Origin: Candidatus Kerfeldbacteria bacterium
Lineage (GTDB): Bacteria > Patescibacteriota > Patescibacteriia > SBBC01 > CAIJZX01
Assembly (NCBI GenBank): GCA_016193315.1
Contig: JACPSJ010000004.1
Span: 1,708-65,707, forward strand
Direction of reading: 5' to 3'
DNA length: 64,000 bases
The notes under the pieces were generated by a model, which did no database searches, was not told the DNA's origin, and saw nothing but the letters and a program-made list of their open reading frames with translations. Position 1 is the stretch's first letter. The number at the start of each line of letters is the position of its first letter. Shown in pieces: positions 37,182 to 59,815 of the stretch. The position numbers and the translations under genes are program-made.

Positions 37182-38522
37182 TCATGCAAACATCCCCTGA
37201 ATCTTGATTATCCCCTTTACCAGCTGATCGATATCTTTCTTGGAGTTATATAGATAGCACGACGCCCGCGCCGTGGCCGGTAGCCCGAACTTGCGATGCA
37301 GAATCATAGCGCAGTGGTGGCCGGCTCGGATCGCGACCCCCTGCTCGTCGAGGATCGATCCGATGTCGTGGGGATGCACGCCGTCGATGGTAAACGCGAA
37401 GATAGCACCACGACCCGCTCCCCCTGCCCTGCCTATCCCGAGCTTGCCGAGGGAAGGGCGAGCATCCGCCGTAGGCGGAGGGGAGGTCACCCCTCCTTGT
37501 AAAGGAGGGGTCGCGGCGGGGGTGGTGGGAGCACCCAGCACTTTTACACCGCTGATCTGGGATAGCTGTTCCAGCCCATACCTCGTCAACTCCTGTTCAT
37601 GCTGCCAGACATTATCCATGCCGATTTTTTGCAAGTAATCAATCGCTGCGCCTAATCCAATCGTCCCAGCGATGTTCGGCGTCCCCGCCTCGAATTTCCA
37701 GGGCAATTCATTCCACTGCGCTCCCTCTTTCGTCACTTCCAGAATCATGTCGCCGCCGCGCAGGAATGGCGGCAAGTCTTGGAGAATTTCCTGTTTCGCA
37801 TACAGCGCCCCAATCCCGGTCGGCGCCAGCATTTTATGTCCGGAGAACACCAGGAAATCCGCATCGAGATCCTGCACATCAACTGGCATGTGCGGTGTCG
37901 ATTGTGCAGCGTCAACCAGTATTTTCGCGCCGACCGAATGTGCTTTTTTAGCGATCATTTTTACATCGTTCACCATGCCCAACACATTCGACATCTGAGT
38001 AATCGCCACCAGCTTCACGCCTTTCAGCAACTCACCAAGATTCGACAAATCAAGCTCACCGTTATCCGTTACCCGAATCCACCGTAATTCCGCTCCCCCT
38101 TGATTAGGGGGAGCTGCGCGTAGCGCTGAGGGGGTGGGGGGTGGAAGCCACGGCACGATATTCGAATGGTGCTCCATCTCCGTCGTCAGGATCGCGTCAC
38201 CCCTTCCAATACTCTTCCCAAATGTGTTGGCCACCAGATTGATCGCCTCGGTCGCGTTGCGAGTAAAAATAATTTCCTTCGTCGATTTTGCATTGATAAA
38301 CTTCCGCACCTTTTCACGCGCACCTTCGTACGCATCCGTGGCTCTCACCGACAAAGCATACACACCGCGATGCACGTTCACCCCATACTGTTCGTAATAT
38401 TCTCGCTCCGCATCAATCACCGCCTGCGGTTTCAAGCTGGTGGCGGTGGAATCTAAATAGACCAGCTTCGGATTGGCCTTGAACATCGGGAAGTCGTTCT
38501 TGATCGTTTCAGTAGACAGCAT
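37182..38522 (-). CDS. sufS: cysteine desulfurase SufS (class V aminotransferase) with two low-complexity in-frame insertions
   Basis: SGHKMLAPTGIGALY (PLP Lys), RAGHHCA and a C-terminal Cys loop. Extra segments LPPPTPSALRAAPPNQG and TTPAATPPLQGGVTSPPPTADARPSLGKLGIGRAGGAG are inserted relative to canonical SufS. Confidence 0.9.
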   Translation of the reverse strand: MLSTETIKNDFPMFKANPKLVYLDSTATSLKPQAVIDAEREYYEQYGVNVHRGVYALSVRATDAYEGAREKVRKFINAKSTKEIIFTRNATEAINLVANTFGKSIGRGDAILTTEMEHHSNIVPWLPPPTPSALRAAPPNQGGAELRWIRVTDNGELDLSNLGELLKGVKLVAITQMSNVLGMVNDVKMIAKKAHSVGAKILVDAAQSTPHMPVDVQDLDADFLVFSGHKMLAPTGIGALYAKQEILQDLPPFLRGGDMILEVTKEGAQWNELPWKFEAGTPNIAGTIGLGAAIDYLQKIGMDNVWQHEQELTRYGLEQLSQISGVKVLGAPTTPAATPPLQGGVTSPPPTADARPSLGKLGIGRAGGAGRGAIFAFTIDGVHPHDIGSILDEQGVAIRAGHHCAMILHRKFGLPATARASCYLYNSKKDIDQLVKGIIKIQGMFA

Positions 38523-38524
38523 GG

Positions 38525-38911
38525 TTAGCGATAAACTATTTCAACGACTATCTTGTCAGGGTCTTCGAAATAAAGGGCATAGTAATTCTTAGAATATTGT
38601 GGAAACCTCTTGGGGCCGCCGTAAAGATAAGATAGTTTATGCTTCAAAACAAACTTCTGTAAGAAGGCATCAACTTGCTTAGCGCTCGAAACCCTAAGCG
38701 CCAGATGATGTAGCCCCTTGCCACGTCGGCGATACCTTTGACCTCTAAATTTCTTATCGATTTGAAAAATCCACAGGTCGATCGTTCCGGCATTGACCCC
38801 GAACCATGTCCGACCCGAATCGATTGTTTTGAATTGCAAAAACTTGCATAGTTTTCTGTAAAACTTAAGATCAGAAGTGTTGAGTTGAAGGTGATACGCG
38901 CTGGCTTTCAT
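38525..38911 (-). CDS. VOC/glyoxalase-bleomycin-resistance family protein; markedly lower GC than its neighbours
   Basis: Listed ORF, wedged between sufD (4-bp overlap) and sufS (2-nt gap); visibly AT-rich codon usage. Confidence 0.65.
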   Translation of the reverse strand: MKASAYHLQLNTSDLKFYRKLCKFLQFKTIDSGRTWFGVNAGTIDLWIFQIDKKFRGQRYRRRGKGLHHLALRVSSAKQVDAFLQKFVLKHKLSYLYGGPKRFPQYSKNYYALYFEDPDKIVVEIVYR

Positions 38912-39534
38912 CCTTCTTTTAGCAGAAACTTTTCTCGTACTGATTTTTGGATCTTATCGCGCCAGCCACGATCGTCGATTTTTTTTATCAGCATACTTAA
39001 AAACCCTTGCACAATCATACGCTCCGCCTGCTCTTCCGACAACCCCCGCGACATCAAATAAAACTTCTGTTCCGGATCGACCGGCTTGGCGGTGGCGCCA
39101 TGCGAGGCTTTCACCTCATTGGCCTCAATCTCCAGGCCGGGAACGGCGTTGGCTTTAGCGTCGGAAGAAAGCAGGAGCGAATCTTGCTGTAGGAAATCAT
39201 TACTGCCTTGTGCGCCTTTGAGGATTTTGATCATCCCGTTGAACTCCAGCTGCGCCCGGTCGGCCAAGACCGCTCGAAACTCGGTTCGGCCGCGAGTGCG
39301 CGGCGCGGCGTGAGTCGTGTCGAGCTTGAGATTGAGAACATCATCACCATGACCCAGGAACAGCCCGATAATTTCCGCTTCCGCGCCCTCGCCAGCCAAG
39401 ACAATTTCGCGCTGGCGGGGTTCGGCTACCGATCCCAAGATTGGCACGATGTAGGTGATCTTCTGGCCGGCCTCAACTGTGACCCGTTCAGAGGGCTCGA
39501 TCAACGTGTCGGTAATTGTCTGTCTCTTATTCAT
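38908..39534 (-). CDS. sufD: short SufD-like protein (SufB/SufD C-terminal core only)
   Basis: ...LEIEANEVKASHGATAKPVDPEQKFYLMSRGLSEEQAERMIVQGF... Confidence 0.75.
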   Translation of the reverse strand: MNKRQTITDTLIEPSERVTVEAGQKITYIVPILGSVAEPRQREIVLAGEGAEAEIIGLFLGHGDDVLNLKLDTTHAAPRTRGRTEFRAVLADRAQLEFNGMIKILKGAQGSNDFLQQDSLLLSSDAKANAVPGLEIEANEVKASHGATAKPVDPEQKFYLMSRGLSEEQAERMIVQGFLSMLIKKIDDRGWRDKIQKSVREKFLLKEG

Positions 39535-39767
39535 CCCCGATGGTTCCAGAGACCCCTCGCCCGCGGCTCGGGGAAACGTATTCCTGAACGCAGCGGAGTC
39601 GCGTCGGACGCGGCGGAGCGGAGTGAAGGATCTCTGGTGCCAGAAGGCTCCTTAGTGTATGAGGGATAAATCACCATTCAATATCACCGACCAAGACAAT
39701 TTCCCGCTGCCGCGGCCCTCTAGGATATCGACATATCCCTGTCGGGTAGTGATTGTTAGTTCCATAA

Positions 39768-40199
39768 TCACAGATGTTCAGCCAGTGGTTTGTCGTGCCG
39801 CAGCCTGGAAAAGAATGTTCTGGCTTCTTGCATTCGGTCTTCTTCCCGGTTGCGAACCTTATTGGTAATGAATTGGAATTTCTTCGTCTGGCCGGCAAAG
39901 CCCGCATCCCCTGCAGTCGGCAGTGATTCCTGGTAGCGTTTGATAAAATCGGCCTCTTCCTGGCTGACAAAGATACCCAATGACGTATAAGCCAGCCTCA
40001 GCCGGTCCATGATTTCCAGTCCTAACTTTTTTTCTACCTTCAGCCAGGTGGCAAAGACCTTGATGGCTTCCTTGATTATCGCTTCCGGATACGGTAATAA
40101 CTTGGATGGAAATACCATTCCATATTTCTTTTTTTCTGAATTTAACACCGCATCGTATTCCTTATAGATTTGTTCGGCTTCTGTGTGCTGCATGGTCAA
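39768..40199 (-). CDS. hypothetical protein, low GC, no recognisable domain
   Basis: Listed ORF inside the suf cluster. Confidence 0.45.
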   Translation of the reverse strand: MTMQHTEAEQIYKEYDAVLNSEKKKYGMVFPSKLLPYPEAIIKEAIKVFATWLKVEKKLGLEIMDRLRLAYTSLGIFVSQEEADFIKRYQESLPTAGDAGFAGQTKKFQFITNKVRNREEDRMQEARTFFSRLRHDKPLAEHL

Positions 40200-40225
40200 A
40201 AATCCTGAGTTATTGATTTGAAATA

Positions 40226-40654
40226 TTAATTGTCGGATGAGCGGGCGTGTTCATGAGACTTTGTCACCTCTTGACGAATCAGCCCGCTCATGTGGTCTAA
40301 CGCTTCCGGTTTGGCTACCTTCACGCGATCCGGATCTAATTCACGCCGACCGTGTAGCGGCACGACATGCAAATGCGCATGCCGTACTCCCAGGCCCTCA
40401 ACCACCAACCCGATTCTGATCGCTCCCGAGACTCGCCGCAGGACCGGCTCAAGTCTCCGCGCTCGCTCAAACAAGCCGTTGTAATCTGCGATACTCATGT
40501 CGTAGATCGAGTCGGCGTGATTTTTGGGAATAATCAGCAAATGCCCAGCGTTGAGAGGCTGGCGATCAAGAAACGCCGTAAACCGGTCATCTTCCCATAT
40601 GTGGTATCGATGATCTTCACCAGACGCAATCCGGCAAAAGGGGCATTCCTTCAT
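40226..40654 (-). CDS. HIT-family (histidine triad) nucleotide hydrolase
   Basis: ...GVRHAHLHVVPL... is an HxHxHxx motif; N-terminal CPFCRI zinc-ribbon-like start. Confidence 0.8.
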   Translation of the reverse strand: MKECPFCRIASGEDHRYHIWEDDRFTAFLDRQPLNAGHLLIIPKNHADSIYDMSIADYNGLFERARRLEPVLRRVSGAIRIGLVVEGLGVRHAHLHVVPLHGRRELDPDRVKVAKPEALDHMSGLIRQEVTKSHEHARSSDN

Positions 40655-41160
40655 CCCACGCTCCCCGGCTCAGTTTCTTCTTCTTGGAAGTAGGCGGCTT
40701 GTTTGCTTTGAATTGCCCGCAGCAGGATTGTGAGGCGCGGTCCGAATTGCTTGACCGTGAGCTTCGGTACCTCGTCGACCGAGACGAACTGGTACGAATC
40801 TAGTTCATCGGCTTGAAGATCTAGTTTGATGTCGTCTGGTAATGTTCCGCCGTAGAAGAAGAAATGCATCACGTCATCGTTATCGGTTGGGCGTGGTGCG
40901 TGCACAACACCGATAAACTCGGGTTTCTCGATTCTTAGTCCGATCTCTTCCCGTGTCTCTCGAATGCACCCGTCTCGAGGTGACTCATATTGACCAACCA
41001 CTCCGCCCGGGATAACCCAGACTTTCTTGTACGAAGGCTTCACGAGCAGCACTTCGTTCCTACTATTCAGAAATACCATTCCTGCCGAAATCCGTTTCTT
41101 CGGCATTCGACGTAAATATTCCTCACGCGGCAGCCAGTCTTTATCACCGGGTTTGCTCAT
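40651..41160 (-). CDS. NUDIX hydrolase
   Basis: GGVVGQYESPRDGCIRETREEIGL Nudix box. Confidence 0.8.
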   Translation of the reverse strand: MSKPGDKDWLPREEYLRRMPKKRISAGMVFLNSRNEVLLVKPSYKKVWVIPGGVVGQYESPRDGCIRETREEIGLRIEKPEFIGVVHAPRPTDNDDVMHFFFYGGTLPDDIKLDLQADELDSYQFVSVDEVPKLTVKQFGPRLTILLRAIQSKQAAYFQEEETEPGSVG

Positions 41161-42566
41161 CCAACCGACCCCTCCATCTCCAACTGAATTAACTTATTCA
41201 ATTCCACCGCATACTCCAATGGTAATTCCCTGACAATCGGCTCAATAAACCCGCTGACAATCAACCCCGTCGCCGTCGGCTCATCAAGACCACGCGACAT
41301 CAGATAGAATAACTGCTCCTCACCCACTTTGGACACCGTGGCTTCATGGCCCAGGCTGACGTCTTTGGCTTTGATTTTCATGGTCGGATAGGTGTCTGAA
41401 CGTGACTGCGGATCAAGGATCAGGGCATCACAGCGGACGTTGGACTTAGAGAAACGTGCTTCCGGTCGAATATCAATGAGCCCGCGATACGACGTCCGAC
41501 CGCCATCTTTGGAAATAGACTTCGAGGTAATGATTGACGACGTTTCCGGAGCGAAATGAAGCGCCTTACCGCCGGCATCTTGGTGCTGCCCCTGACCGGC
41601 AAACGCGATCGACAGCACTTCGCCATGCGCTTTCCGGCCGACCAGATAGACCGACGGATATTTCATCGTCACCCGCGAACCTAAATTGCCGTCGATCCAT
41701 TCCATCGTCCCCTCCTCGTGGACCTGTGCCCGCTTGGTCACGAGATTGTAGACGTCTTTCGACCAGTTTTGAATGGTCGTATATCGTACCCGCGCGCCGG
41801 GTTTGACGAAAATCTCGACCACCGCCGCGTGCAATGAATCGCTGGCATACACCGGCGCCGTGCAGCCCTCAACGTAATGGACAAAGCTGCCTTCCTCGAC
41901 GACGATCAGCGTTCGCTCGAACTGGCCCATGTTTTTGGCGTTGATGCGGAAGTACGCTTGGAGCGGCATTTCAACTTTCACCCCTTTCGGCACATAGACG
42001 AACGACCCGCCAGACCAGACCGCACTGTTCAGAGCAGCAAACTTGTTATCGTGCGGCGGAATCAACGTGCCTAAGTACTGCTTCACAATTTCTGGATATT
42101 CACGCAGTCCGGAATCCATGTCGGTAAAGACTACGCCCTGCTTCTCTAATGAACTAATTAACGAATGATAAATAACCTCGCTATCATACTGGGCCCCAAC
42201 CCCGGCCAAAAACTTCTTTTCCGCTGCTGGGATGCCTAGCCGATCAAACGTTTTTTTCATCGAATCCGGCACATCGTTCCATGTCCGCCCCTGTTCTTTC
42301 ACCGGCTTCAGGTAGTAGTAAATATCGTCGAACAAAATCTCATTCAAATTCGCCCCCCACTGCGGCATCGGTTTTTGGAGAAACGTTTGGTAGGCCCGCA
42401 AACGAAACTCCGTCATCCACTTCGGCTCGCGTTTGTGTTTCGATATTTGTCCGACCACGGCCGCTGACAATCCCTTGCCCGTCTTAAACACCCCCTCTTC
42501 GGGCATGCTAAATCCAAAACGGTAGGTGTCGAGCGTTTGCGTGGCTTGTTGAGCTTTGAGGGTCAT
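41157..42566 (-). CDS. sufB: Fe-S cluster assembly protein SufB
   Basis: 469 aa. The C-terminus ...VSKVGEEQLFYLMSRGLDEPTATGLIVSGFIEP... is highly characteristic of SufB. Confidence 0.9.
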   Translation of the reverse strand: MTLKAQQATQTLDTYRFGFSMPEEGVFKTGKGLSAAVVGQISKHKREPKWMTEFRLRAYQTFLQKPMPQWGANLNEILFDDIYYYLKPVKEQGRTWNDVPDSMKKTFDRLGIPAAEKKFLAGVGAQYDSEVIYHSLISSLEKQGVVFTDMDSGLREYPEIVKQYLGTLIPPHDNKFAALNSAVWSGGSFVYVPKGVKVEMPLQAYFRINAKNMGQFERTLIVVEEGSFVHYVEGCTAPVYASDSLHAAVVEIFVKPGARVRYTTIQNWSKDVYNLVTKRAQVHEEGTMEWIDGNLGSRVTMKYPSVYLVGRKAHGEVLSIAFAGQGQHQDAGGKALHFAPETSSIITSKSISKDGGRTSYRGLIDIRPEARFSKSNVRCDALILDPQSRSDTYPTMKIKAKDVSLGHEATVSKVGEEQLFYLMSRGLDEPTATGLIVSGFIEPIVRELPLEYAVELNKLIQLEMEGSVG

Positions 42567-42738
42567 GTATTCCTGAGCGTGAGCGAAGGATCTCTGGAAA
42601 CGTAAACGCGGATTGTTGGCAAGCGTCCTTTAGCCACCGGCATATCCGGTTTTTTCTAATTCCACCGCCAACTCCGGTCCGTCCCCTCCTCTGATGAGGC
42701 GGGGTGGCCCGACGCGCTTCGCCGTCGGGACAGGGTGG

Positions 42739-43476
42739 TCAAGAAACACGGGTTGGCTCATACCCACTTTTTTCTAATTGTACGGCAAGATCAGGTCCTC
42801 CCCTCTTCACAATACGACCCCCCACCAACACCTGCACCACGTCCGGCTTGACGTAATCCAGCAACCGCTGATAGTGCGTGATGATCAAAAAACCGCGGTC
42901 CGGCGAGCGCATGGCATTGACCCCTTTGGCCACGATTCTAAGCGCATCAATATCCAGTCCCGAATCCGTCTCGTCGAGAATGCACATCGACGGCTGGAGA
43001 ACCATCAGCTGCAGAATTTCCGCCCGCTTTTTTTCGCCGCCGGAAAAACCTTCATTGATGCCGCGAGTGATGAAATCTTCGTTCATCCCCATGGCGCTCG
43101 TTTTCTGTTTCATCAACTCGAAAAACTCCGGCACCGGCATTGATTCTCGGCGCCGAGCATTCATCGCCGTCCGCAAGAAGTTTCCCATTGACACTCCCGC
43201 CACTTCTTGCGGGTATTGGAACGAAAGGAACAAGCCGAGTTTCGATCGCTCATCTGGTTTGAGACTCAAGACATTATGACCTTTATACCGAATACTTCCT
43301 CCTGTTACCTGGTACTTCGGGTGGCCCATCAATGCGGCGGCCAAGGTTGACTTTCCTGATCCGTTCGGGCCCATGATGGCGTGGACCTCGCCCTGAGAGA
43401 CGCGAAGGCTCAGGCCACTGAGTATTTCTTTCCCTTCAACTTTCACCCGAAGATCATGAATGTCCAACGTCTTCAT
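42739..43476 (-). CDS. sufC: Fe-S cluster assembly ATPase SufC
   Basis: MKTLDIHDLRVKV...GPNGSGKSTLAAALMGHPKY Walker A; ABC signature LSGGEKKR (FSGGEKKR here). Start ATG at 43476; listed ORF to 43518. Confidence 0.9.
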   Translation of the reverse strand: MKTLDIHDLRVKVEGKEILSGLSLRVSQGEVHAIMGPNGSGKSTLAAALMGHPKYQVTGGSIRYKGHNVLSLKPDERSKLGLFLSFQYPQEVAGVSMGNFLRTAMNARRRESMPVPEFFELMKQKTSAMGMNEDFITRGINEGFSGGEKKRAEILQLMVLQPSMCILDETDSGLDIDALRIVAKGVNAMRSPDRGFLIITHYQRLLDYVKPDVVQVLVGGRIVKRGGPDLAVQLEKSGYEPTRVS

Positions 43477-43958
43477 GTTGTTGAAAGTTCCTGCTGGAGA
43501 TGCTGAATGACGGGCCAAGCCACGGGGTGAAACTTTTCAGGCCCCAATGATACGAATAATTCCCAGTGTGGGTGTTTAGCCTCACGGTCATTGGTCACAT
43601 GACCTACCGGGATTTTTTGGTTAGTCACTCGAAAAAGATGGAACTCATTCCGGCAGTGATAAACTTTACCTGAAGGATTGTATAGAAAATAATATTCGTT
43701 CCGGTCGAAATTCTCTCCACTTCCTATCCGTAATCCTGCTTCCTCTTGAACCTCTCGCCTGGCGGCCTGCAAAGCGTCCTCTCCATCCTCGACCTTACCG
43801 CCGGGAAACCAAAGGAGTCCGGTGCTCTTTGTCGTCATCAGTAAAATCTGGTCTTTCTGTAGCACTAAAGCGTACGCTCCGCGACGCTCGATAGTTTTGA
43901 TAGGATCTACGTGAATTTTCCTGCCGAAAATGTCGTAGCCTTCAGTTGTGGTGCTCAT
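43473..43958 (-). CDS. NUDIX hydrolase
   Basis: GGKVEDGEDALQAARREVQEEAGL Nudix box. Confidence 0.8.
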   Translation of the reverse strand: MSTTTEGYDIFGRKIHVDPIKTIERRGAYALVLQKDQILLMTTKSTGLLWFPGGKVEDGEDALQAARREVQEEAGLRIGSGENFDRNEYYFLYNPSGKVYHCRNEFHLFRVTNQKIPVGHVTNDREAKHPHWELFVSLGPEKFHPVAWPVIQHLQQELSTT

Positions 43959-43977
43959 AACTTGTAGTTAGGGTCAC

Positions 43978-44433
43978 TCATTCCTTCACCGCCCGCACAT
44001 CGGCCTTGATGTTCCGCTCATTGCCGTCGAACCACATTTCGGCTTCGAACTTCTGCCCGGAGATGACATAGGGCAACCACTGATCATCGCCACTCCACAT
44101 CTGGGCATAGGGGATCTGATCGACGGGAAACCACTGGGGTTTCATTTCGTCAGTCTCCACCGGCTGGCCTTCGAACTCCTCCGTGCGAAAGACCGTCACT
44201 TTCCAGTCCCCGACTTTCGAATCATGGTACAAAATCGTGCCCAGGGATTTGTCGAGCGTGGGCGTCAACCCAATTTCTTCTTTCGTCTCACGGATTCCGG
44301 CCAGGCGGGCGTTCTCGCCAAACTCAACCTTGCCGCCGGTCCCGTTCCACCGCCCAACGCCAAAGCCGCGCTTCTTCATGGCCAACAGAATGTGCGCCCC
44401 TTTCAGGATATAGACGAGCACCCCGTTGGTCAT
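43978..44433 (-). CDS. NUDIX hydrolase (MutT-like)
   Basis: GGKVEFGENARLAGIRETKEEIGL Nudix box. Confidence 0.8.
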   Translation of the reverse strand: MTNGVLVYILKGAHILLAMKKRGFGVGRWNGTGGKVEFGENARLAGIRETKEEIGLTPTLDKSLGTILYHDSKVGDWKVTVFRTEEFEGQPVETDEMKPQWFPVDQIPYAQMWSGDDQWLPYVISGQKFEAEMWFDGNERNIKADVRAVKE

Positions 44434-45155: not shown

Positions 45156-46220
45156 CTATGGCCGCGAGACAACCAACATCACCGGCTGGCCCCTGACCGC
45201 ATCGCGACGGCTCAGCGCTACGCCACGTCCATTAGACACTAGGTCGTGCATGGCCGCCATAATCCGCGTTTCGTCGTAGAGGTAGTTTTCGCCAAAGCGG
45301 GTGCCCGGGTCATTGACGATGAAGCGGCCGTTTTCCGCGTACCCTTTGATAACCACCATGTGATAGATCGGCCCGCCATTACGGAAGTTAGGGTTATTCA
45401 GCAGGCTGCCGGCCAGCGGTACGATAACTGGCTGGCCTTGGTCGAGAAAATCGTGGATTTGCGCAATCGATGGATTCCTGACCAGTTCGACCCGGAGGCC
45501 GTAATTGGCCCGCAGCATGGCGGCGGTCTCGGCCGCCGAGGTATCCTTGTGGTAGCCAAACGTGGCCAGTTCCCACGCTTTCAAACGCTGCAGCGCTTGC
45601 TCGGCATCCGACGGGCCGGCGATCTCCCGTCGCTGGAAGTACCGACCGACCATCAGCACTGAAGCCTCCTCACAAAAATTGTCGTGATCAAAGTCCCAGA
45701 GGCCATGTGGCGCCTGGGCGGTAAACGGCACCGCCAGCCGGTGCGTTGACGCCAGCTCCGCGAGGGCCCGATTACTGATCCCCAGGCCAAGGGCGGTCAT
45801 GATCTGAAAAGCGTCGGCTGGGCGACCGAGAAAGTGACGTTGCAGCGTACCGGGATAGACGTACCACGCTTCACCATTCCGCTCTACCTGGATGAGAACA
45901 CGCCCTGACATGCGGCGTCGCAGGTTAGGATCGCCGGCCTGGCTGCTGCCAGCCACAGGAATCTTCGCCAGGTTAGCATTGCTAATGCCTAAACCATGTT
46001 GCCGCATGATGAAGAACGCGTCGGCCGGGCGACCGAGGTACACGCGGAGCAGCGTATCCGGATGGACGTACCAGGCCTCGCCGTTCCGTTCGACCTGCAG
46101 CACGATCATGCCGCGGACGCGGCTAGCCACGTCCGCTTGGAGATGTCCGGGCCACAGCCACCATGCCGCCAAAAGCAAAAATGGGGCCGCGCCCCACCTG
46201 ATCGACCGCTGACTGCTCAT
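45156..46220 (-). CDS. secreted C39-like (papain-fold) cysteine peptidase with two N-terminal copies of a ~46-aa repeat
   Basis: Signal/TM at the N-terminus. Repeats GR(V/I)LIQVERNGEAWYV.P.TL.R.FLGRPADAF.IM..LGLGISN..LA x2. Catalytic region ...NFCEEASVLMVGRYF...YHMVVIKGY...NDPG. Confidence 0.7.
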   Translation of the reverse strand: MSSQRSIRWGAAPFLLLAAWWLWPGHLQADVASRVRGMIVLQVERNGEAWYVHPDTLLRVYLGRPADAFFIMRQHGLGISNANLAKIPVAGSSQAGDPNLRRRMSGRVLIQVERNGEAWYVYPGTLQRHFLGRPADAFQIMTALGLGISNRALAELASTHRLAVPFTAQAPHGLWDFDHDNFCEEASVLMVGRYFQRREIAGPSDAEQALQRLKAWELATFGYHKDTSAAETAAMLRANYGLRVELVRNPSIAQIHDFLDQGQPVIVPLAGSLLNNPNFRNGGPIYHMVVIKGYAENGRFIVNDPGTRFGENYLYDETRIMAAMHDLVSNGRGVALSRRDAVRGQPVMLVVSRP

Positions 46221-46278
46221 CTTCCCCTAAGCATACCACAATCAACGCTAAAAATCAAGCTCGCCGGGACCGTTATAG

Positions 46279-47106
46279 TTATTGTTCCGCGACGATCAAG
46301 ACTACTTTTTGACCGTCCCGAACATCGCCGTTGCGGGGGACGGTCCGATCGCCGCTCGGTACCCAATCATGGATCGCGTTCATGACTACCTCTTGATCAT
46401 AGACGTATTCCTCGCCATTGCGAGTGCCCGGGTCGTTGGTAATAAACTGGCCATCGTCGGTGTAACCACGGATAACTAGCATGTGGTAAATCGGCCCCGG
46501 CGATCGGAAGTTGGGGTTACCAAGTTCGCGGCCAGCGGCCGGGACGATGACCGGCTGGCCGCTGGCCACTGCCCGTTTGATGTCATCGACCGTCGGATTG
46601 GTTATGGCTTCCACCCTGAGTTCGTAAAAATCCACCAGCATCTGAGCTGTTTCGGCGGCGGTCGTGTCATAGTAAAAGCCCAGCTGGTCCAATTCCCAGG
46701 CCTTCAGCTGCTGCAGCGCCGCTTCGGCATCGTCTCGATCGCGGATTGGCCGCCGCTGGAAATACCGTCCGACCATCAGCACGGCCGCTTCTTCGCAGAA
46801 CTCGTTGTGGTCAGTGTCCCAGTTGGCGTGGGGGGCTTGCGAGGTGAACGGAATGGCCAGATTCTTCTCCGCGGGGAAATCTGGAACATGCGCCGATTCA
46901 TTCAGGTTCAGTATCTGGCGGCGGTTGGCGGCGGCATTCAGAGCCGGCGCGGCAATCGATTCAGCAATCTGCTCAGCTGGAGGCAGGCGGCTCTTTTGCC
47001 GGTCCAGTAGCCAGTCTTGAACGCGGCTGGTATGCCAAACTCTCCAGCTCCCATAGCCGAGGCCAGCCACGACAACCAGCCAAACAAACAGTTTCTGAAT
47101 GGTCAC
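46279..47106 (-). CDS. C39-like cysteine peptidase paralog without the N-terminal repeats
   Basis: ...EFCEEAAVLMVGRYF...YHMLVIRGY...NDPG...; N-terminal TM. Confidence 0.7.
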   Translation of the reverse strand: MTIQKLFVWLVVVAGLGYGSWRVWHTSRVQDWLLDRQKSRLPPAEQIAESIAAPALNAAANRRQILNLNESAHVPDFPAEKNLAIPFTSQAPHANWDTDHNEFCEEAAVLMVGRYFQRRPIRDRDDAEAALQQLKAWELDQLGFYYDTTAAETAQMLVDFYELRVEAITNPTVDDIKRAVASGQPVIVPAAGRELGNPNFRSPGPIYHMLVIRGYTDDGQFITNDPGTRNGEEYVYDQEVVMNAIHDWVPSGDRTVPRNGDVRDGQKVVLIVAEQ

Positions 47107-49421: not shown

Positions 49422-49961
49422 TTAGGTCACGAATCGTTTCTCCCCGGCTTCAATCCGGACGGTCAAAACATTGTCACGCGGTGGGATGGGACACGAGTAG
49501 TGTTGATTATAGGCACAGTAGGGATTGTAGGCCAAGTTAAAATCGACTTCGAGTAAGCCATCAGCGCCGGTGGCCGGCTCCAAGTAGCGCCCGGCCGGAT
49601 AGGTCTCGTCCTCGCCGGTGGCATCGCGGAAAGGCAAAAAATATCCGTGTTCATCTTTGAAGACTGACGGTTTAGCCGGTTGGTCTTGAACCGCAAAAAG
49701 AATTTTGCCGGCCCGAACGTATCGCCGTTGGCCGCTCCTCGAGTCTGAGCCTCGGAGTCGAAGACCGGTGCTTAACATCATGATCGGATCAGGCGGAACA
49801 TTTTCGTCGAGCGGCAATCGAAGCCGGAGAGCCGGGTCTTCCGGATAGTGATGCAAACCGGAAAATGAAGTTTGCTGCTCCGGAGTTAACGGCGAATCCG
49901 GGCCCCGAAAAAAATCGTCTTTCTCGTTCCGGAATGTTTGCAGGTCAGCGCCCACGCTCAA
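49422..49961 (-). CDS. DUF1684-family protein
   Basis: ...YNPYCAYNQHYSCPIPPRDNVLTVRIEAGEK... Confidence 0.55.
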   Translation of the reverse strand: MSVGADLQTFRNEKDDFFRGPDSPLTPEQQTSFSGLHHYPEDPALRLRLPLDENVPPDPIMMLSTGLRLRGSDSRSGQRRYVRAGKILFAVQDQPAKPSVFKDEHGYFLPFRDATGEDETYPAGRYLEPATGADGLLEVDFNLAYNPYCAYNQHYSCPIPPRDNVLTVRIEAGEKRFVT

Positions 49962-51337
49962 GCGGGAACAATTACAATCGAGTTCGGCAACCCTCGGCCG
50001 GGACCCAGGATATAACGACCATTCAAGTAGAGAGCGGTCGAACCACCGCCGTCGAGATTGAGAGCGTAGTCGAGACCGAGGCCGTCCATGGCCGCCGCCG
50101 AATCGGTGACTGTTGCCCCACGGACGATGAGCAAGAAGATGGTGTCTCCTTTCCAGCCGATGGCGCCGCGGTATGATTTGACCGTCGCCTGTTTACTATC
50201 AAGCTGGTACTGCCCGACCACATTCTGACCAGCAATGACCAGCGGTGGGCCGTTACTCAGCGCCGCCCGCAGGATCCCGCTGCCGCCCTTGGCTAACGAG
50301 TCGGCCCGGAACCCATCAAGAAACTTCTGGTAGCTGCCGAAAGTCTTTGACTGGCGGTAAAAAAATGGCCGATTGCTGGTGTCAAAGGCAAGCAGCGGCT
50401 CGACCGTATACTTGATCCGGCCGGCGTTGATCATGGTGCGGGTAAAAGAGTTGTAGACCGGCGCAAAATAGTGACCGGTTTGCCCGACGCAACTGGCATA
50501 TTCGGCCGGGCAGAAGTAGGTGCCGTGGATGCCAGCGATGCCGGCCCGCCGGCCGACATAGGTCGACAACGAGTAGACCGGACAGTTGTTCGCGCAATCC
50601 CCGTTGGTGGCAGTATCAGTCATCAGTTTGACCGCCGGGTTCTTGCGGTCGAACGTCAAGTAGTCAACCAGAAACGTGCCGCGGCTGGTGGCGACGTTCT
50701 TCTGGCCGAGGGCGACGCCGCTATCGACCGGAATCTGGCTTAGGTTGGCGTTAGTGATGCCCAATCCCAACCGCCGCATTAAGGTAAAAGCGTCCGCCGG
50801 GCGTCCGAGGAAGTAGCGCTGCTGGGTCTTGGGATAGACGTACCACGCTTCGCCGTTCCGTTCGACTTGGATTAGGATCCGGCCGGCCAGACGTCGACGA
50901 AGCGCCAGGTCGCCTTCTGACGCGCTGCCGGCCACCGGGATTTTGGCCAGGTTGGCGTCGGAAATTCCCAGTCCCAGTCGACGCATGATATCAAAAGCAT
51001 CCGCGGGACGACTGAGGAAAAACCGGGTCAGCGTCACCGGATGGACGTACCACGCCTCGCCGTTCCGTTCGACCTGGATCAGAATGTAACCTGATACGCG
51101 TTCGGCCACCGTCGCCAAGGACCCGGTGTTTGGCCAGAGCAGAGCCAACCAGATGATAGCCGCGATGGTAACAGAAATCTTACGCATCGATATTGCCATT
51201 ATACCATAGGCCGCCGAGACGGCTGCACGTGCGACCGCTCTCAAAAAATACTGATAATGACCAGGATGCCGAAGGCATTGGCCAAAAACGACAGGCCGAG
51301 AAAACGCGCGGGCGTGACATCCGAGAAGCCAAACCAT
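49958..51337 (-). CDS. secreted phosphodiester-glycosidase (NAGPA-like) domain protein with the same N-terminal ~46-aa tandem repeat (x2)
   Basis: Repeats as in 45156..46220. C-terminus ...DYALNLDGGGSTALY..., typical of the phosphodiester glycosidase family. Confidence 0.7.
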   Translation of the reverse strand: MVWLLGCHARAFSRPVVFGQCLRHPGHYQYFLRAVARAAVSAAYGIMAISMRKISVTIAAIIWLALLWPNTGSLATVAERVSGYILIQVERNGEAWYVHPVTLTRFFLSRPADAFDIMRRLGLGISDANLAKIPVAGSASEGDLALRRRLAGRILIQVERNGEAWYVYPKTQQRYFLGRPADAFTLMRRLGLGITNANLSQIPVDSGVALGQKNVATSRGTFLVDYLTFDRKNPAVKLMTDTATNGDCANNCPVYSLSTYVGRRAGIAGIHGTYFCPAEYASCVGQTGHYFAPVYNSFTRTMINAGRIKYTVEPLLAFDTSNRPFFYRQSKTFGSYQKFLDGFRADSLAKGGSGILRAALSNGPPLVIAGQNVVGQYQLDSKQATVKSYRGAIGWKGDTIFLLIVRGATVTDSAAAMDGLGLDYALNLDGGGSTALYLNGRYILGPGRGLPNSIVIVPA

Positions 51338-51753
51338 CCAGCTGCCAGTTCATCGGGTAACGGCGAGGCCACAATCAGAATCCCCAGCCCATAGCGCATC
51401 CAGCGCGGCAGGTGCTCTCGATGTGGCATCCGTTCAACCAGGGCCTGGATGAAGTGCCAATGGATGCTCTGGCGGAAAACGGTAAAGGCCAGCAGGTCAT
51501 ACAAAGCGGCCCCCATCCCACCGATCAATGTCACTGCCAAAGGATTGAGTGATTCTGGTAATTGAGCAAAAATCACGGACGCGAGCGGCGAGGTCAGACT
51601 TAATCCATACAAAATGCCGCTAACAAATGCAGCTACGTACCCGGATCGTTCGACGTCGGTCACCAGCTCCCGGAGCGGGGGTACGCTGATAATCAAAGCT
51701 GCCCCGACGACGCCGATCGCGAAACCGAGCCAGCCGACGTTATGACGACTCAT
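51241..51753 (-). CDS. small polytopic membrane protein (SPLPDEL-motif family), translationally coupled to the upstream FRD-Rieske gene
   Basis: ATG at 51753 overlaps the upstream TGA (ATGA). Paralog of 59285..59815, sharing ...TSPL..V.F..LP.S.NP......GG.G.A.YDL...I.ASPLPDEL..G.S... Confidence 0.55.
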   Translation of the reverse strand: MSRHNVGWLGFAIGVVGAALIISVPPLRELVTDVERSGYVAAFVSGILYGLSLTSPLASVIFAQLPESLNPLAVTLIGGMGAALYDLLAFTVFRQSIHWHFIQALVERMPHREHLPRWMRYGLGILIVASPLPDELAAGWFGFSDVTPARFLGLSFLANAFGILVIISIF

Positions 51754-52796
51754 GTTTTGACTTCGACGCTCTGGCCTTGGACGCGGACTTGATAGACTGG
51801 TTGCGGATCGAGCGCGGGGCCGCGCAGCACGGCTCCAGTCTGGACGTTGAATCGTGATCCGTGCAGCGGGCACTCAACGACGCTGCCTTCTACAAATCCT
51901 TCACATAGGGGGCCTGCGGCGTGGTTACAACGGTTATCGAGCGCAAAGACTTCGTTCCCGAGCCGAAACAGAGCTAGCTGTTTGCCGTTGACCGTCGCGC
52001 AAAACGGTTTCCCGTCGGCCAGTTGATCAAGTGCGGCCACGCGAACAAAGCCCGCTTCACTACTTGCGGCGCTGGTTTGGTGGATCGGCACAGGCGGCTC
52101 AGTCACGGGTTGAGGAATCGACGGTTCAACCACGCGCTCAGCTCGTTGGCGGGCTCCGGTCAGACGCAGGAAGGTCGCGACGATCGCCGATACTCCGAAC
52201 ACCAACCACAACCACCGCAAATTCGTGCCTTGAACATCGCTGCCGATGTTCCATGAGTGCAGCCAAACGAGAGCAAAAACTAGGTAATTGAGAACGTGGA
52301 CCCTCCGCCACCACCGCTTGACGGACACCAATTTTCGCAGCAGCGCCGCGCCGACCGTCATGTACAACAACGCCAGAGCCGTATACCCCAGCCAGATGTA
52401 CTTGACGTTTTCCGGGGCCACGAAATCCCGTCGTAAATAACTTTGGATGCCCACGCCTACAAATAACAGCGCGGGGTGAGTGGTGGCGAATAGCAAAACG
52501 AAGATGCCTTGCCAGCGATGGTAGCGCTCAATACCGGTGTAAATTCGCCGCAGGTGGGGCATCAGCGAACCGATCATCAACTGCATCCAGAGCAAGGTAA
52601 AGGCGTACAGGCCGAACAATGGAAACATCAATTTCGACCAGGTCTTCGCGTCGGCTCCGGATAAGAATGACGCCCCGCCGCGGAGGCTAAAAAACATCTG
52701 GCCTGGCAGCCATAGCAAGAAAATGGCTGCCAATGGCAAGAGCCAACTGCCAAGTGTGATCATGACTGACCGCTGGTTTGATTGTTTTTCAGTCAT
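51750..52796 (-). CDS. ferric-reductase-like (YedZ/MsrQ-type, heme-binding 6-TM) domain fused to a C-terminal Rieske [2Fe-2S] domain
   Basis: TM region with conserved His pairs; C-terminus ...CNHAAGPLCEG...CPLHGSRF... is the Rieske CxH...CxxH motif. Confidence 0.75.
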   Translation of the reverse strand: MTEKQSNQRSVMITLGSWLLPLAAIFLLWLPGQMFFSLRGGASFLSGADAKTWSKLMFPLFGLYAFTLLWMQLMIGSLMPHLRRIYTGIERYHRWQGIFVLLFATTHPALLFVGVGIQSYLRRDFVAPENVKYIWLGYTALALLYMTVGAALLRKLVSVKRWWRRVHVLNYLVFALVWLHSWNIGSDVQGTNLRWLWLVFGVSAIVATFLRLTGARQRAERVVEPSIPQPVTEPPVPIHQTSAASSEAGFVRVAALDQLADGKPFCATVNGKQLALFRLGNEVFALDNRCNHAAGPLCEGFVEGSVVECPLHGSRFNVQTGAVLRGPALDPQPVYQVRVQGQSVEVKT

Positions 52797-52885
52797 CTAT
52801 AATGATAGCCTATGGGAAACCACGGAGGACCGCAACTAGGGCTTGCTCTATACAAATCGAGAATCAAAAAAGAGTGATCCGCAGA

Positions 52886-53458
52886 TCACCCGTTGGTATC
52901 ACCACCCAATCGCGGCTCGCCCTCGGTCAGTTCGTCGGGTGCCGGCTGGCCGGTTATGAAAGACGCGAGTTGGGCGCCCCAGTGCACCCCGACGACCCCG
53001 GCGACATTGCCGACCAGATGGAGTCGATACGAGCTTTGCTCACCGTACAGTCTGAAGAACGGCTCGAGGTCTGACGGCCGGAAGGAGGCTTCGGCCAAGG
53101 TGACGAACTCGATCGTCTCGTCCCTGATGCGGTTGGCCAAATGCCGGCCAATCATTGCCGGCACCATGGTGGCCAGGAGATCGATTGCTACCGGCTTCAG
53201 CTGAAACAAAACCACGACGTCCGTCTCGTCCCCGGTCAGGTCAATGTATACCTCTGGAAAATGGCGGCGCTGCTCCATCTCCCCAGCCACCGCCAGCATC
53301 GTCGGCAGGACATCGCTGGCATAGGTCAAGTCGATCGCTGGATATGGCGCCCGAGTCCGCCGGTTGATGCCGACGCCAACTTGGATGTGGTCAACGACGG
53401 CGTTGCAGATTACCCGAACCCCATGGCCGGGCTGCCCGTGCTTGAAAAGGACATGCAA
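52886..53458 (-). CDS. hypothetical protein
   Basis: Listed ORF; no recognisable motif. Confidence 0.4.
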   Translation of the reverse strand: MHVLFKHGQPGHGVRVICNAVVDHIQVGVGINRRTRAPYPAIDLTYASDVLPTMLAVAGEMEQRRHFPEVYIDLTGDETDVVVLFQLKPVAIDLLATMVPAMIGRHLANRIRDETIEFVTLAEASFRPSDLEPFFRLYGEQSSYRLHLVGNVAGVVGVHWGAQLASFITGQPAPDELTEGEPRLGGDTNG

Positions 53459-53541
53459 GATTTCACCTCCTTGCCGAAGGTCCGGTTCTGAAGATGCACA
53501 CTCGCTTGAGGTACAGCGCTCCAGCCTAACCCTCAGCCACG

Positions 53542-54375
53542 GTGAATGTCAAGCCTGAAGTGCATCGCAGTCGCCATTGGTCAACTTCCACCAGACAGAG
53601 CCAAGCGGCATGTTATAGTGGATTAATGAGAGTCAAAACAACGACCGCCCTAGTTGGCCTAGTGGCCGTCGTTACCGCGACCGTCGTCATCTGGCAATAC
53701 GCCAGGCCGCGAATAGCCAATCAGAACCGTCCTTTATTGAATACCAACCGTGTCGTCAATTCATCAACCCCTGCTGCCACCAACCACAACGCCCCACCCA
53801 CCAATTCGGCTCGATCAAATGCAAACCGCAACATGAATACAGTGCAGGAAGCTGAGAAACCAACAATCGTTGTTCCGATCCGCGGTTTCTTCAACCGCAT
53901 TACCAAGAAACCATTCGGGGTCTACATCACGCCGAAAAATTCGCCGGTCCAGCCGGAGCGGTTCACTGGTTATCACACCGGCGCTGATGCTGAAACGACA
54001 CCTGACGAACAAAGCGTCGATCTACCAATCTACTCCGTGGCCTCCGGCACCGTTGTTTTCGCCGGCCCCGTCAACGGCTATGGCGGCGTGGTCATGATTC
54101 GGCATGAGGTTGAAGGTCAAACCTTGACTGCGCTTTACGGTCATGTCCGGATTTCATCGATCAGCGTGGCGGTCAATCAAGCAGTCAAAGCCGGCCAGCA
54201 GATCGCCGTTCTTGGGACCGGATTCGGTTCGGAAACCGACGGCGAACGCAAACATCTGCACTTCGGGCTGATCAAGGACGCGACCATCAACTTCCGCGGC
54301 TATGTCAGCCAGCAAAGTCAGTTGTCGGTCTGGTGGGATCCGGCAGCGTGGTTGAAGGATCAGGGAGCGAAATAG
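53542..54375 (+). CDS. M23/LytM-family peptidoglycan endopeptidase
   Basis: ...GYHTGAD...ALYGHV...RKHLHFGLIKD... M23 metal ligands; N-terminal TM. Possible later start at MRVKTT (about 53626). Confidence 0.8.
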   Translation: MNVKPEVHRSRHWSTSTRQSQAACYSGLMRVKTTTALVGLVAVVTATVVIWQYARPRIANQNRPLLNTNRVVNSSTPAATNHNAPPTNSARSNANRNMNTVQEAEKPTIVVPIRGFFNRITKKPFGVYITPKNSPVQPERFTGYHTGADAETTPDEQSVDLPIYSVASGTVVFAGPVNGYGGVVMIRHEVEGQTLTALYGHVRISSISVAVNQAVKAGQQIAVLGTGFGSETDGERKHLHFGLIKDATINFRGYVSQQSQLSVWWDPAAWLKDQGAK

Positions 54376-58398: not shown

Positions 58399-59307
58399 TT
58401 AACTCGGCCTGAGCGTCCCGCTGAATATCTCCCAGGCCAGCAGAGACTTAGCTACCAGACTCAAGATCATATATGCCCGTTCCCCGTAGAGATAATCCCG
58501 CCACGGACCAACTTTTTTATACTGCAAGACCATGTTCAGCGCAAAGATAGAAAAGGTGGCAAAGATCGTAAAGACAATGGCATAGACGAATCCTGGAACA
58601 TTTACGCCCGCGCTGCTGATGGCCTTCCCGAAGTATGTAAAAATCACCAACCACGGTATTGCACCCGCAAAGACGCCAATCCAATATGCCAGCCAGCTCG
58701 TTTTCGTTGTGGACTGATTGTGCACCTCCATGACCAGTCCCATCAGATTCATGATCGCATTGAGCGAGAACAGGGCGGTCAGCAACCAGAAATCATAGAC
58801 GCCGCAGAGCATCGCGATGATCCAGATCATGACCGACGAAGACAGCATGTATTCAATCCAGCGCAGCTTGTTCATGCCTTTGGCAAGATTCGCTTCATAC
58901 CAATGGCGGAGTGGTCCGGCTAACAGGAAATGAGCGAGGGCTGAGAGAAAAAGAAAGACCGCGACGGCCGGTCCAATGCGCAGGTCAAACCAATGTTCCG
59001 GCGTTGGGGCGATGCCAAACGTCGGATTCGTCGGATCAATCCGCAGGTACGACGTGACCACGGGTAAAGACGAATCATTGCTGATTGCTACCATAACCAC
59101 GCCTTGAATAAAGTGCAGGGCGGCCATTGACCAGTTCCAGGCCCGTAAGGAGTGAAACCGCAATTCAGCAGGTGTGCTCGTGCCCATCGTGTTCATATGG
59201 TCGTAATTACTGTTTGTTTCATAGTCCGATTGTAGCATGTTTGCCACGCATTGAGCATCCGCTGTCGCTTGCGCCCTGGCGCCACTATTGATGAATGCTC
59301 CGCCCAA
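58399..59307 (-). CDS. heliorhodopsin (inverted-topology 7-TM retinal protein)
   Basis: Strong match to heliorhodopsin hallmarks: ...NKLRWIEYMLSSSVMIWIIAMLCGV..., ...PGFVYAIVFTIFATFSIFALNMVLQYKKVGPWRDYLYGERAYMILSLVAKSLLAWEIFSGTLRPS (Schiff-base Lys in SLVAKS). True start is probably downstream of the listed one (MNTMG...). Confidence 0.85.
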   Translation of the reverse strand: MGGAFINSGARAQATADAQCVANMLQSDYETNSNYDHMNTMGTSTPAELRFHSLRAWNWSMAALHFIQGVVMVAISNDSSLPVVTSYLRIDPTNPTFGIAPTPEHWFDLRIGPAVAVFLFLSALAHFLLAGPLRHWYEANLAKGMNKLRWIEYMLSSSVMIWIIAMLCGVYDFWLLTALFSLNAIMNLMGLVMEVHNQSTTKTSWLAYWIGVFAGAIPWLVIFTYFGKAISSAGVNVPGFVYAIVFTIFATFSIFALNMVLQYKKVGPWRDYLYGERAYMILSLVAKSLLAWEIFSGTLRPS

Positions 59308-59815
59308 TCAACGTAATCGCCAGAATGCCGGCGGTGTTGAGAGCAAATGACAAGAGGAGGAACCACCTCGTTGACATCTTTGAAAAACCAATCATGGCAA
59401 TGCCGAGTTCATCCGGCAGCGGCGAGGCAATCACGATGCCGCCCAGGATCACCGACGCCCAGGTCCGGTAGCGGTTGTGATTCAACCAGGCGGTGAAGTG
59501 CTCCACAATGGAAACATGCGAGGCGCGGCCAAGTAGACGGTAAATGATCAGGTCATACGAGGCCGAACCAATGCCACCCAGAATTGCCGCCCCGATCGGA
59601 TTGACGGAGACTGGCAATTCAAAAAACATCACGGCCGAGAGTGGCGACGTAACCACATTTGCATACATCGTCCCAGCCATGAACGGTGCAAGGTATCCGA
59701 CTCCGGCGATAGCCAGAAGTGCAGACCGCCAGCTTGGGATAGCCAGAACAAGGATGGCGATCGCCACTCCAGCGGCGAATGCGATGTAGGTTATTTTTTT
59801 ATCGAGATGCATCAA
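59285..59815 (-). CDS. small polytopic membrane protein (SPLPDEL-motif family), paralog of 51241..51753, immediately upstream of the heliorhodopsin
   Basis: ...VVTSPLSAVMFFELPVSVNPIGAAILGGIGSASYDL...IVIASPLPDELGIAMIGFS... Confidence 0.55.
   Translation of the reverse strand: MMHLDKKITYIAFAAGVAIAILVLAIPSWRSALLAIAGVGYLAPFMAGTMYANVVTSPLSAVMFFELPVSVNPIGAAILGGIGSASYDLIIYRLLGRASHVSIVEHFTAWLNHNRYRTWASVILGGIVIASPLPDELGIAMIGFSKMSTRWFLLLSFALNTAGILAITLIGRSIHQ

Follow-up and report, generated by a model that had tools for sequence, protein, structure and literature searches.

The window analysed here, a 64,000-nucleotide stretch of contig JACPSJ010000004.1 from a Candidatus Kerfeldbacteria genome (candidate phyla radiation), encodes two paralogous small membrane proteins, which we call S1 and S2, and each adjoins a gene for a membrane protein that binds a cofactor: the S1 gene follows one encoding a ferric-reductase-like heme domain fused to a Rieske [2Fe-2S] domain, and the S2 gene lies beside one encoding a heliorhodopsin. 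The question raised by this arrangement is whether the family of S1 and S2 serves membrane redox or photoreceptor proteins as a dedicated partner, as had been proposed from the letters of the DNA (hereafter the sequence-only reading). Our searches argue for a different answer, to which we give a probability of roughly 0.68, namely that the fusion gene and the S1 gene form a two-gene operon, the first gene encoding a heme-Rieske electron wire and the second a DedA/VTT protein reduced to the bare core of that fold, and that the small-protein family is not a dedicated partner of cofactor-bearing proteins.

A membrane heme domain fused to a Rieske ferredoxin domain

Both open reading frames (ORFs) of the operon were confirmed on the minus strand at the positions assigned to them by the sequence-only reading (Table 1), and so was the proposed composition of the larger product. 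Against Pfam, this 348-residue protein matched Ferric_reduct (PF01794) over residues 61–176 with 29.9 bits, above the gathering cut-off of 28, and Rieske (PF00355) over residues 251–335 (1.7e-18, 66.7 bits against a cut-off of 20.3); precomputed PF01794 matches are present on several of its homologs as well. The fusion is real, because about 12 full-length homologs with 43–53% identity, mostly from Kerfeldbacteria, carry the same complete architecture. The NCBI gene call for this locus is a 203-residue “non-heme iron oxygenase ferredoxin subunit” (P0165) that covers the Rieske half only; judging from the homologous sequences, the public annotation misses the entire membrane heme domain, which belongs to the fusion gene.

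In an AlphaFold2 (AF2) model of the fusion (pLDDT 89.9, pTM 0.81), six long helices precede a beta-rich domain, and residues 238–245 form a disordered linker. Four histidines make up two putative heme-ligand pairs, one in helix 3 (H93/H107) and one in helix 5 (H167/H181; the last residue is H180 in the numbering of the tool and H181 in that of the sequence), each pair having the spacing H-x13-H. H107 and H167 are invariant, the other histidine of helix 5 is at least 90% conserved, and H93 is retained in every close relative, its place being taken by asparagine in the distant fusions P0207–P0209. The four-histidine motif is conserved in the fusions and also in stand-alone relatives of the heme domain. 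With six helices and two histidine pairs, this part of the protein is predicted to be a ferric reductase domain (FRD) carrying two stacked b-type hemes. Segments rich in arginine and lysine, as read from the sequence, occur in the loops between helices 2 and 3 and between helices 4 and 5, and in the tail after helix 6; by the positive-inside rule both termini of the fusion, including the Rieske domain, are predicted to be cytoplasmic.

The ligand motifs of the Rieske domain, C-N-H and C-P-L-H, are retained in all fusions compared. Its best NCBIfam models are those of the dioxygenase ferredoxin subunits AndAb (3.5e-24) and HcaC (1.1e-18), both matches being below the equivalog cut-offs. A Foldseek search with this domain identified the ferredoxins of naphthalene and biphenyl dioxygenases (2qpz and 2e4q), with target TM-scores of ~0.9, root-mean-square deviations of 0.8–0.9 Å and 33–35% identity, and a PDB profile search gave 5e-22; over the naphthalene, biphenyl and carbazole dioxygenase ferredoxins the deviations were 0.8–1.3 Å at 30–40% identity. 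Given this close superposition, the Rieske domain should therefore be of the soluble, low-potential shuttle type. In the dioxygenase systems (NDO ferredoxin, BphF/BphA3, CarAc, AndAb and HcaC) the ferredoxins shuttle electrons from an FAD-containing reductase; the Rieske domain of the fusion shares their fold and their CxH...CxxH ligands, but is tethered to a membrane cytochrome and has no oxygenase or reductase gene adjacent to it in the window.

The heme domain has the features of the FRD superfamily, which comprises short bacterial FRE-like proteins, NOX, FRE, MsrQ/YedZ and STEAP: it is a cytochrome b for transmembrane electron transfer, built of six helices, the third and fifth of which carry the paired histidines. 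As in the NOX and FRE enzymes, a cytoplasmic electron-input module is fused to it; in the Kerfeldbacteria protein, however, this module is a Rieske ferredoxin domain rather than a flavin adenine dinucleotide (FAD)/NADPH dehydrogenase domain, and Pfam and NCBIfam scans of the fusion protein found no match to an FAD_binding or NAD_binding domain. A survey of the FRD superfamily published in 2013 includes Rieske among the accessory electron-transfer domains (PMC3591440). The heme module had also been assigned to the YedZ/MsrQ type, an assignment that we reject: no MsrQ model of NCBIfam matched the fusion at E ≤ 1, the protein has the four-histidine motif instead, and there is no MsrP gene nearby. 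Nor do the labelled genes around it in the syntenic loci (NAGPA, DUF1684, Zip, TruB and others) include one for a molybdoenzyme or an MsrP-like protein.

Relatives of the fusion and the source of electrons

Relatives of the fusion differ from the FRD superfamily at large in adding an N-terminal DAO-type FAD domain. In a locus from Andersenbacteria (L173, 5001–7200) the domain order is DAO-FRD-Rieske, interrupted by frameshifts, and in L081 (4992–5198) a 76-residue remnant of the DAO C-terminus lies in frame ahead of the heme domain; in the window, the sequence ahead of the fusion gene was searched and showed no such remnant. Two other loci (L086, 5001–6680, and L087, 1289–2968) have a stand-alone heme-domain gene with a gene for a 309-residue Pyr_redox_2 flavoprotein after it. 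In L086 an MsrB (SelR) gene is located 3.2 kb upstream of the stand-alone heme-domain gene. A further locus, L174 (701–6556), encodes the distant fusion P0208, which is ~25% identical over its full length and has no equivalent of H93.

We propose that a cytoplasmic flavoprotein would reduce the Rieske cluster of the fusion, a flavoprotein being the favoured donor because the relatives have either an N-terminal DAO-type FAD domain or an adjoining Pyr_redox_2 gene. Electrons would then pass from the Rieske cluster to the inner heme and on to the outer heme, which might reduce an acceptor outside the cell, with Fe3+, O2 or a protein as candidates. In such a scheme the Rieske domain would stand in for the FAD/NADPH dehydrogenase domain of the NOX and FRE enzymes.

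The small proteins probably belong to a core-only branch of DedA/VTT proteins

S1 and S2 are identical to the proteins HYY50_04795 and HYY50_04825, respectively. That they are paralogs, as had been suggested from a shared signature, was borne out by a formal BLASTP alignment (36% identity over 163 residues, 1e-34) and by the match of S2 to a profile of the family in hmmsearch (2.3e-53); the window contains these two copies only. No close orthologs of S2 were found, the best matches other than the copy in its own genome being 31–43% identical over most of the protein. With an 18-member profile we identified 1,114 clusters (at 50% identity) with E-values of 1e-3 or less and 939 with E-values of 1e-10 or less, and nearly all members among the 150 matches listed are stand-alone proteins of 160–200 residues. 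One strict peptide pattern located relatives at no fewer than 573 places in species-representative genomes. Most of the named loci among the 80 listed are from Patescibacteria lineages and a few are from DPANN archaea. About 20 family-bearing genomes (that of L001 and those of other TPA_asm loci) are titled “uncultured Gammaproteobacteria”; these labels look wrong, because the M23-type peptidase that neighbours the family gene in L001 resembles the one in the window (53542–54375).

The sequence-only reading had noted a loose resemblance of the small proteins to DedA/VTT proteins and offered it as speculation; our searches strengthened it considerably. Of 71 family members, 32 matched VTT_dom (best E-value 2.4e-7), whereas every other Pfam family was matched by one member only. 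An hhalign comparison of the family with six DedA proteins of E. coli K-12 gave 1.4e-4 over 100 columns, in a register that places F90/R94 on motif 1 ([F/Y]xxx[R/K]) of YqjA and G142/F151 on its motif 2 (GxxxΦxxxx[F/Y]); the definitions of the two motifs are those quoted in bioRxiv 10.1101/2020.12.18.423352. Both motifs are well conserved in the family: position 90 is F or Y in 70 of the 71 members and position 94 is R or K in 66, and for motif 2 the corresponding counts are 64 for G142, 55 for V, I, L or M at position 146, and 63 for F151. The AF2 model of S1 (pLDDT 88.8, pTM 0.82) contains two re-entrant hairpins of the form helix-break-helix (39–49/55–63 and 117–129/134–142), which we assume to face each other. 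The predicted topology of S1, with three membrane helices and two such hairpins, is that of the DedA core, which has been described as three membrane helices plus two re-entrant helices (PMC9881974, PMC7818093). On these sequence comparisons the family is likely to be homologous to DedA/VTT, though formal Pfam membership was not reached.

Several other searches yielded no match. S2 did not match VTT_dom in the Pfam scan; PF06695 (Sm_multidrug_ex) was matched by none of the 71 members at E ≤ 0.01, nor by S1 or S2 at E ≤ 1; a Foldseek search of the PDB with the S1 model returned nothing meaningful (best E-value 1.2), and a PDB sequence-profile search with S1 found nothing, so that no solved structure anchors the DedA assignment.

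The signature first noticed in S1 and S2 extends through the family, T54, G78/G81, D86 and SPLPDE being invariant or nearly so in the 71 members; D86, in helix 2, is invariant. When compared with DedA/VTT proteins (PF09335, e.g., YqjA, YghB and YdjX and the eukaryotic TMEM41B, VMP1 and TMEM64, with PF06695 as a remote branch), members of the family have the same core layout with a short helix before each hairpin, and conserve motifs 1 and 2 in register with YqjA, but they are short (170–190 residues), have no flanking helices beyond the core, and match under the Pfam cut-off. The hairpin tips differ as well. At the tip of hairpin 1 the sequence reads T54-[T/S/A]-[A/P] and lacks acidic residues; hairpin 2 has an acidic and invariant tip, S-P-L-P-D-E (D134-E135), which has no arginine and aligns with an arginine-bearing segment of YqjA. 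The most apt description of the family, which we call the mini-DedA family, is that of a divergent DedA branch, restricted to the core and with what would be an unusual substrate site. An identity with the COG0586 flippases of undecaprenyl phosphate (UndP), i.e., UptA, YghB and YqjA, was rejected by published criteria (PMC9881974), as the defining charged residues are absent. S1 would more likely be a proton- or cation-coupled small transporter, or a scramblase, than an undecaprenyl-phosphate flippase, because its presumed substrate site has no arginines but an invariant D-E pair at the tip of hairpin 2 and an invariant aspartate in helix 2.

A clade-restricted operon

The stop codon of the fusion gene and the start codon of the S1 gene overlap in the manner that the sequence-only reading had described, TGA and ATG being read directly from the shared ATGA. 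In one clade the small gene follows the fusion in six of eight fusion loci (the window, L004, L081, L083, L085 and L175), and in five of these six the two genes share an NTGA overlap (ATGA in the window; ATGA, GTGA or TTGA in L085, L081, L083 and L004). The pair is found in two different flanking contexts. It also comes apart in both directions: L082 and L084 have the fusion and the downstream asparaginase gene without the small gene, L002 and L006 have the small gene without the fusion ahead of the same downstream gene order, and the small gene is without the fusion in L001, L003, L005 and L176 too. There is no small gene beside the stand-alone heme-domain genes of L086 and L087 or the DAO-FRD-Rieske gene of L173, and the 251-residue ORF that follows the distant fusion in L174 is not a member of the family. 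The pairing claimed for the small protein and the heme-Rieske fusion is thus conserved within one clade and breaks both ways, and we conclude that the two genes form a clade-restricted, translationally coupled operon that is separable in either direction; it is not an obligate partnership, because loci with the same gene order can have either gene alone. A terminator-like hairpin upstream of the fusion gene (Table 1) suggests that the two genes are a transcription unit of their own. The ~750 bp upstream of the fusion gene (52797–53541) hold only overlapping ORFs on both strands, for which no family match was sought.

Neighbours of heliorhodopsin and of the mini-DedA family

The gene beside S2 encodes a heliorhodopsin by strong matches to PF18761 (3.2e-96, 321.8 bits, cut-off 26.7) and to the NCBIfam HeR model NF038020 (1.7e-99, 332.3 bits, cut-off 100). 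The adjacency described by the sequence-only reading therefore stands; the gene overlap does not, since it arises only with the longest ORF, from a TTG start at 59307, and the domain starts 54 residues further in. Starts at the first ATGs (59238, 59196 and 59187), which are more plausible, leave a spacer of 46–97 nt between S2 and heliorhodopsin. Among the 80 closest heliorhodopsin loci (the best 80 of the scan, 50–75% identical, 61 of them extending more than 600 bp upstream, and with no correction for shared ancestry) none had a family member within 4 kb, and the closest of them shared no gene order with the window. The adjacency of S2 and heliorhodopsin is a one-off, because the family is missing from these 80 loci, the closest of them have no gene order in common with the window and S2 has no close ortholog. 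A literature search for heliorhodopsin together with DedA yielded only an unrelated transporter survey. The commonest neighbour in the heliorhodopsin loci was a protein of ~430 residues with an N-terminus that looks MerR-like by eye; in 8 of the 80 (e.g., L111, 960–2255) its gene lies immediately downstream in the same orientation.

The converse search gave the same result. Within 8-kb flanks of the 80 best family loci, in counts that ignore shared ancestry, there was no heliorhodopsin gene, and a heme-Rieske fusion in one locus only (L004). The sole recurrent neighbour was a type-IIA P-type ATPase, present in 21 of the 80, the next most frequent neighbour being present in nine; in about ten loci, from both Microgenomates and Parcubacteria, the ATPase gene and the small gene share a strand and either abut or overlap (Table 1). 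The best models for these ATPases were those of PMR1-type and SERCA-type Ca2+ pumps, both matches being under the equivalog cut-offs. The window itself has no type-IIA P-type ATPase gene.

Table 1. Positions of the genes and elements discussed (window coordinates, except where a locus label is given).
Feature	Position	Strand	Evidence
Fusion gene, 348 residues: six-helix FRD cytochrome b, linker and C-terminal Rieske [2Fe-2S] domain	51750..52796	(-)	ORF, Pfam, homologs, AF2
Membrane heme domain of the fusion, residues 1–221, six long helices	52134..52796	(-)	AF2, histidine conservation
Rieske-type ferredoxin domain of the fusion, residues 250–348, ligands C-N-H and C-P-L-H	51750..52049	(-)	NCBIfam, Foldseek, PDB profile
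Terminator-like hairpin with a T-run behind it, a short distance upstream of the fusion gene	52872..52891	(-)	Consensus scan, weak
S1, 170 residues, predicted core-only membrane protein of the DedA/VTT superfamily	51241..51753	(-)	VTT_dom, hhalign, AF2
S1 layout: helix 3–23, amphipathic helix 25–35, hairpin 39–63, helix 71–96, short helix 100–108, hairpin 117–142 (SPLPDE tip), helix 148–169			
ATGA stop/start overlap of the fusion gene and S1	51750..51753	(-)	Read directly
S2, 176 residues, paralog of S1	59285..59815	(-)	BLASTP, hmmsearch with the family profile
Heliorhodopsin gene downstream of S2, start uncertain (ATG at 59238, 59196 or 59187)	58399..59238	(-)	Pfam, NCBIfam
Loci with an ATPase gene abutting or overlapping the small gene	L012:8001-10957, L016, L041, L054, L055:753-3928, L057, L067, L072:7947-11161, L073, L074		

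Alternative explanations

That the small proteins might be accessory or partner subunits dedicated to membrane proteins with heme/Fe-S or retinal cofactors is an idea that draws on the presence of two paralogs in one genome, each adjoining such a protein, and on the retention of the fusion pairing in six of eight fusion loci. Its expectation is not what the neighbourhoods show: in neither direction did the family track heliorhodopsin (0 of 80 loci each way), and it met the fusion in only 1 of 80. S2 has no ortholog closer than ~43% identity, the family is present in at least 573 species genomes in mostly unrelated contexts, and within conserved gene order the fusion and the small gene have each been lost independently. 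The family is thus widespread and has essentially no neighbourhood bias towards redox or photoreceptor proteins, a pattern named beforehand as one that would tell against the proposal, and we consider a dedicated partnership very improbable. A role as a housekeeping lipid carrier, in which the family would be the candidate-phyla version of a DedA UndP flippase (UptA/COG0586-like) or a phospholipid scramblase and its adjacencies would merely reflect compact genomes, fits the DedA core fold with both of its signature motifs, the very wide distribution in peptidoglycan-bearing candidate-phyla bacteria with mostly variable neighbourhoods, and the status of DedA proteins as established or proposed lipid flippases (PMC9881974, PMC10193950). 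However, the family is also found in DPANN archaea, and its link with the ATPases is stronger than compaction alone predicts, so this role seems to us unlikely.

The ATPase link has a parallel, albeit only a suggestive one, in the relationship of the eukaryotic VTT proteins VMP1 and TMEM41B with SERCA; these two proteins and TMEM64 have functional ties to that pump. VMP1 and TMEM41B have been reported to be Ca2+ release proteins of the endoplasmic reticulum (PMC10060355, PMC11880246), and VMP1, TMEM41B and TMEM64 are named alongside SERCA in the literature; in our own reading, such release would oppose the Ca2+ uptake driven by SERCA. The mini-DedA proteins could by analogy conduct H+ or Ca2+ beside electrogenic machines, i.e., the heme-Rieske wire and the Ca2+-type ATPases, and so balance charge or return ions. 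The ATPase near 21 of 80 family loci and abutting the small gene in about ten, the invariant acidic residues D86 and D134-E135 with no basic residues there, the reported Ca2+ release by the eukaryotic proteins, and the conserved NTGA overlap with the fusion gene are all in keeping with this. On the other hand, the prevailing experimental view of DedA proteins is that they flip lipids or polyprenyl phosphates (PMC10193950, PMC9881974), the window has no ATPase, and the ATPase counts ignore shared ancestry; charge compensation is accordingly an unlikely explanation in our estimate. That the family as a whole is a proton or Ca2+ pathway alongside electrogenic membrane machines, these being a SERCA/PMR1-type ATPase in many candidate phyla and the heme-Rieske wire in Kerfeldbacteria, we put forward as a speculation with rather long odds.

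We therefore favour the two-gene operon of an electron wire and a core-only DedA/VTT protein whose family is not tied to cofactor-bearing partners, and the following points weigh against it. The hhalign probability for the alignment of the family with DedA was 52%, and S1 itself matched VTT_dom (PF09335) with 24.9 bits (3e-5), under the cut-off of 33.9, which bears on the homology with DedA. The neighbourhood counts cover the best 80 loci on the family side, with 8-kb flanks, and the best 80 on the heliorhodopsin side, and are uncorrected for shared ancestry on both. The 4-base overlap of the fusion gene and the small gene has been kept at ~50% protein identity and in two flanking contexts, which goes beyond mere residual gene order and could reflect a real functional tie in this clade. 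In L174, three genes downstream of the distant heme-Rieske fusion, there is a gene for a 585-residue protein with a canonical VTT_dom. A looser link of DedA proteins with redox proteins may also exist, given the ydjX-ydjY-ydjZ genes of E. coli K-12 (L169, 18402–20516), where two DedA-family genes flank a gene of the 4Fe-4S ferredoxin type.

Other features of the window

The ORF downstream of S1 has syntenic counterparts labelled NAGPA. Further observations concern the regions 45156–47106 and 49958–51337 of the window. Two adjacent ORFs, of 354 and 275 residues, resemble each other in their C-terminal halves, and the label Peptidase_C39_2 is borne by the gene at the corresponding position of the syntenic locus L175. 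The 354-residue ORF and the ORF that lies downstream of S1 each have two copies of a short N-terminal repeat (“ILIQVERNGEAWYV...LGLGISNANLAKIPV”). The GC content of the region 38001–44000 is ~0.51–0.52, compared with 0.55–0.63 elsewhere in the window, and ORFs within this low-GC region (41157–43518) look SufB- and SufC-like by eye.

Implications

A dedicated partnership would have given the heliorhodopsins, whose function is debated, a conserved partner; this does not hold. What the locus offers instead is a new, unannotated and minimal protein family that, in contrast to DedA/VTT proteins in general, is found for the most part in candidate-phyla bacteria and DPANN archaea. A bare DedA/VTT core with inverted charge at its presumed substrate site would make a compact model of the workings of this fold. 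If the mini-DedA family did form an ion pathway, it would be a prokaryotic counterpart of the relationship of VMP1, TMEM41B and TMEM64 with SERCA, and would bear on the debate about what VTT/DedA domains transport, ions or lipids. As for the fusion, candidate-phyla organisms are usually regarded as having no respiratory chains, and the presence in such organisms of a modular transmembrane electron wire, with a heme domain, a Rieske domain and in some cases a DAO-type FAD domain, suggests that they may carry out some extracellular reduction chemistry.

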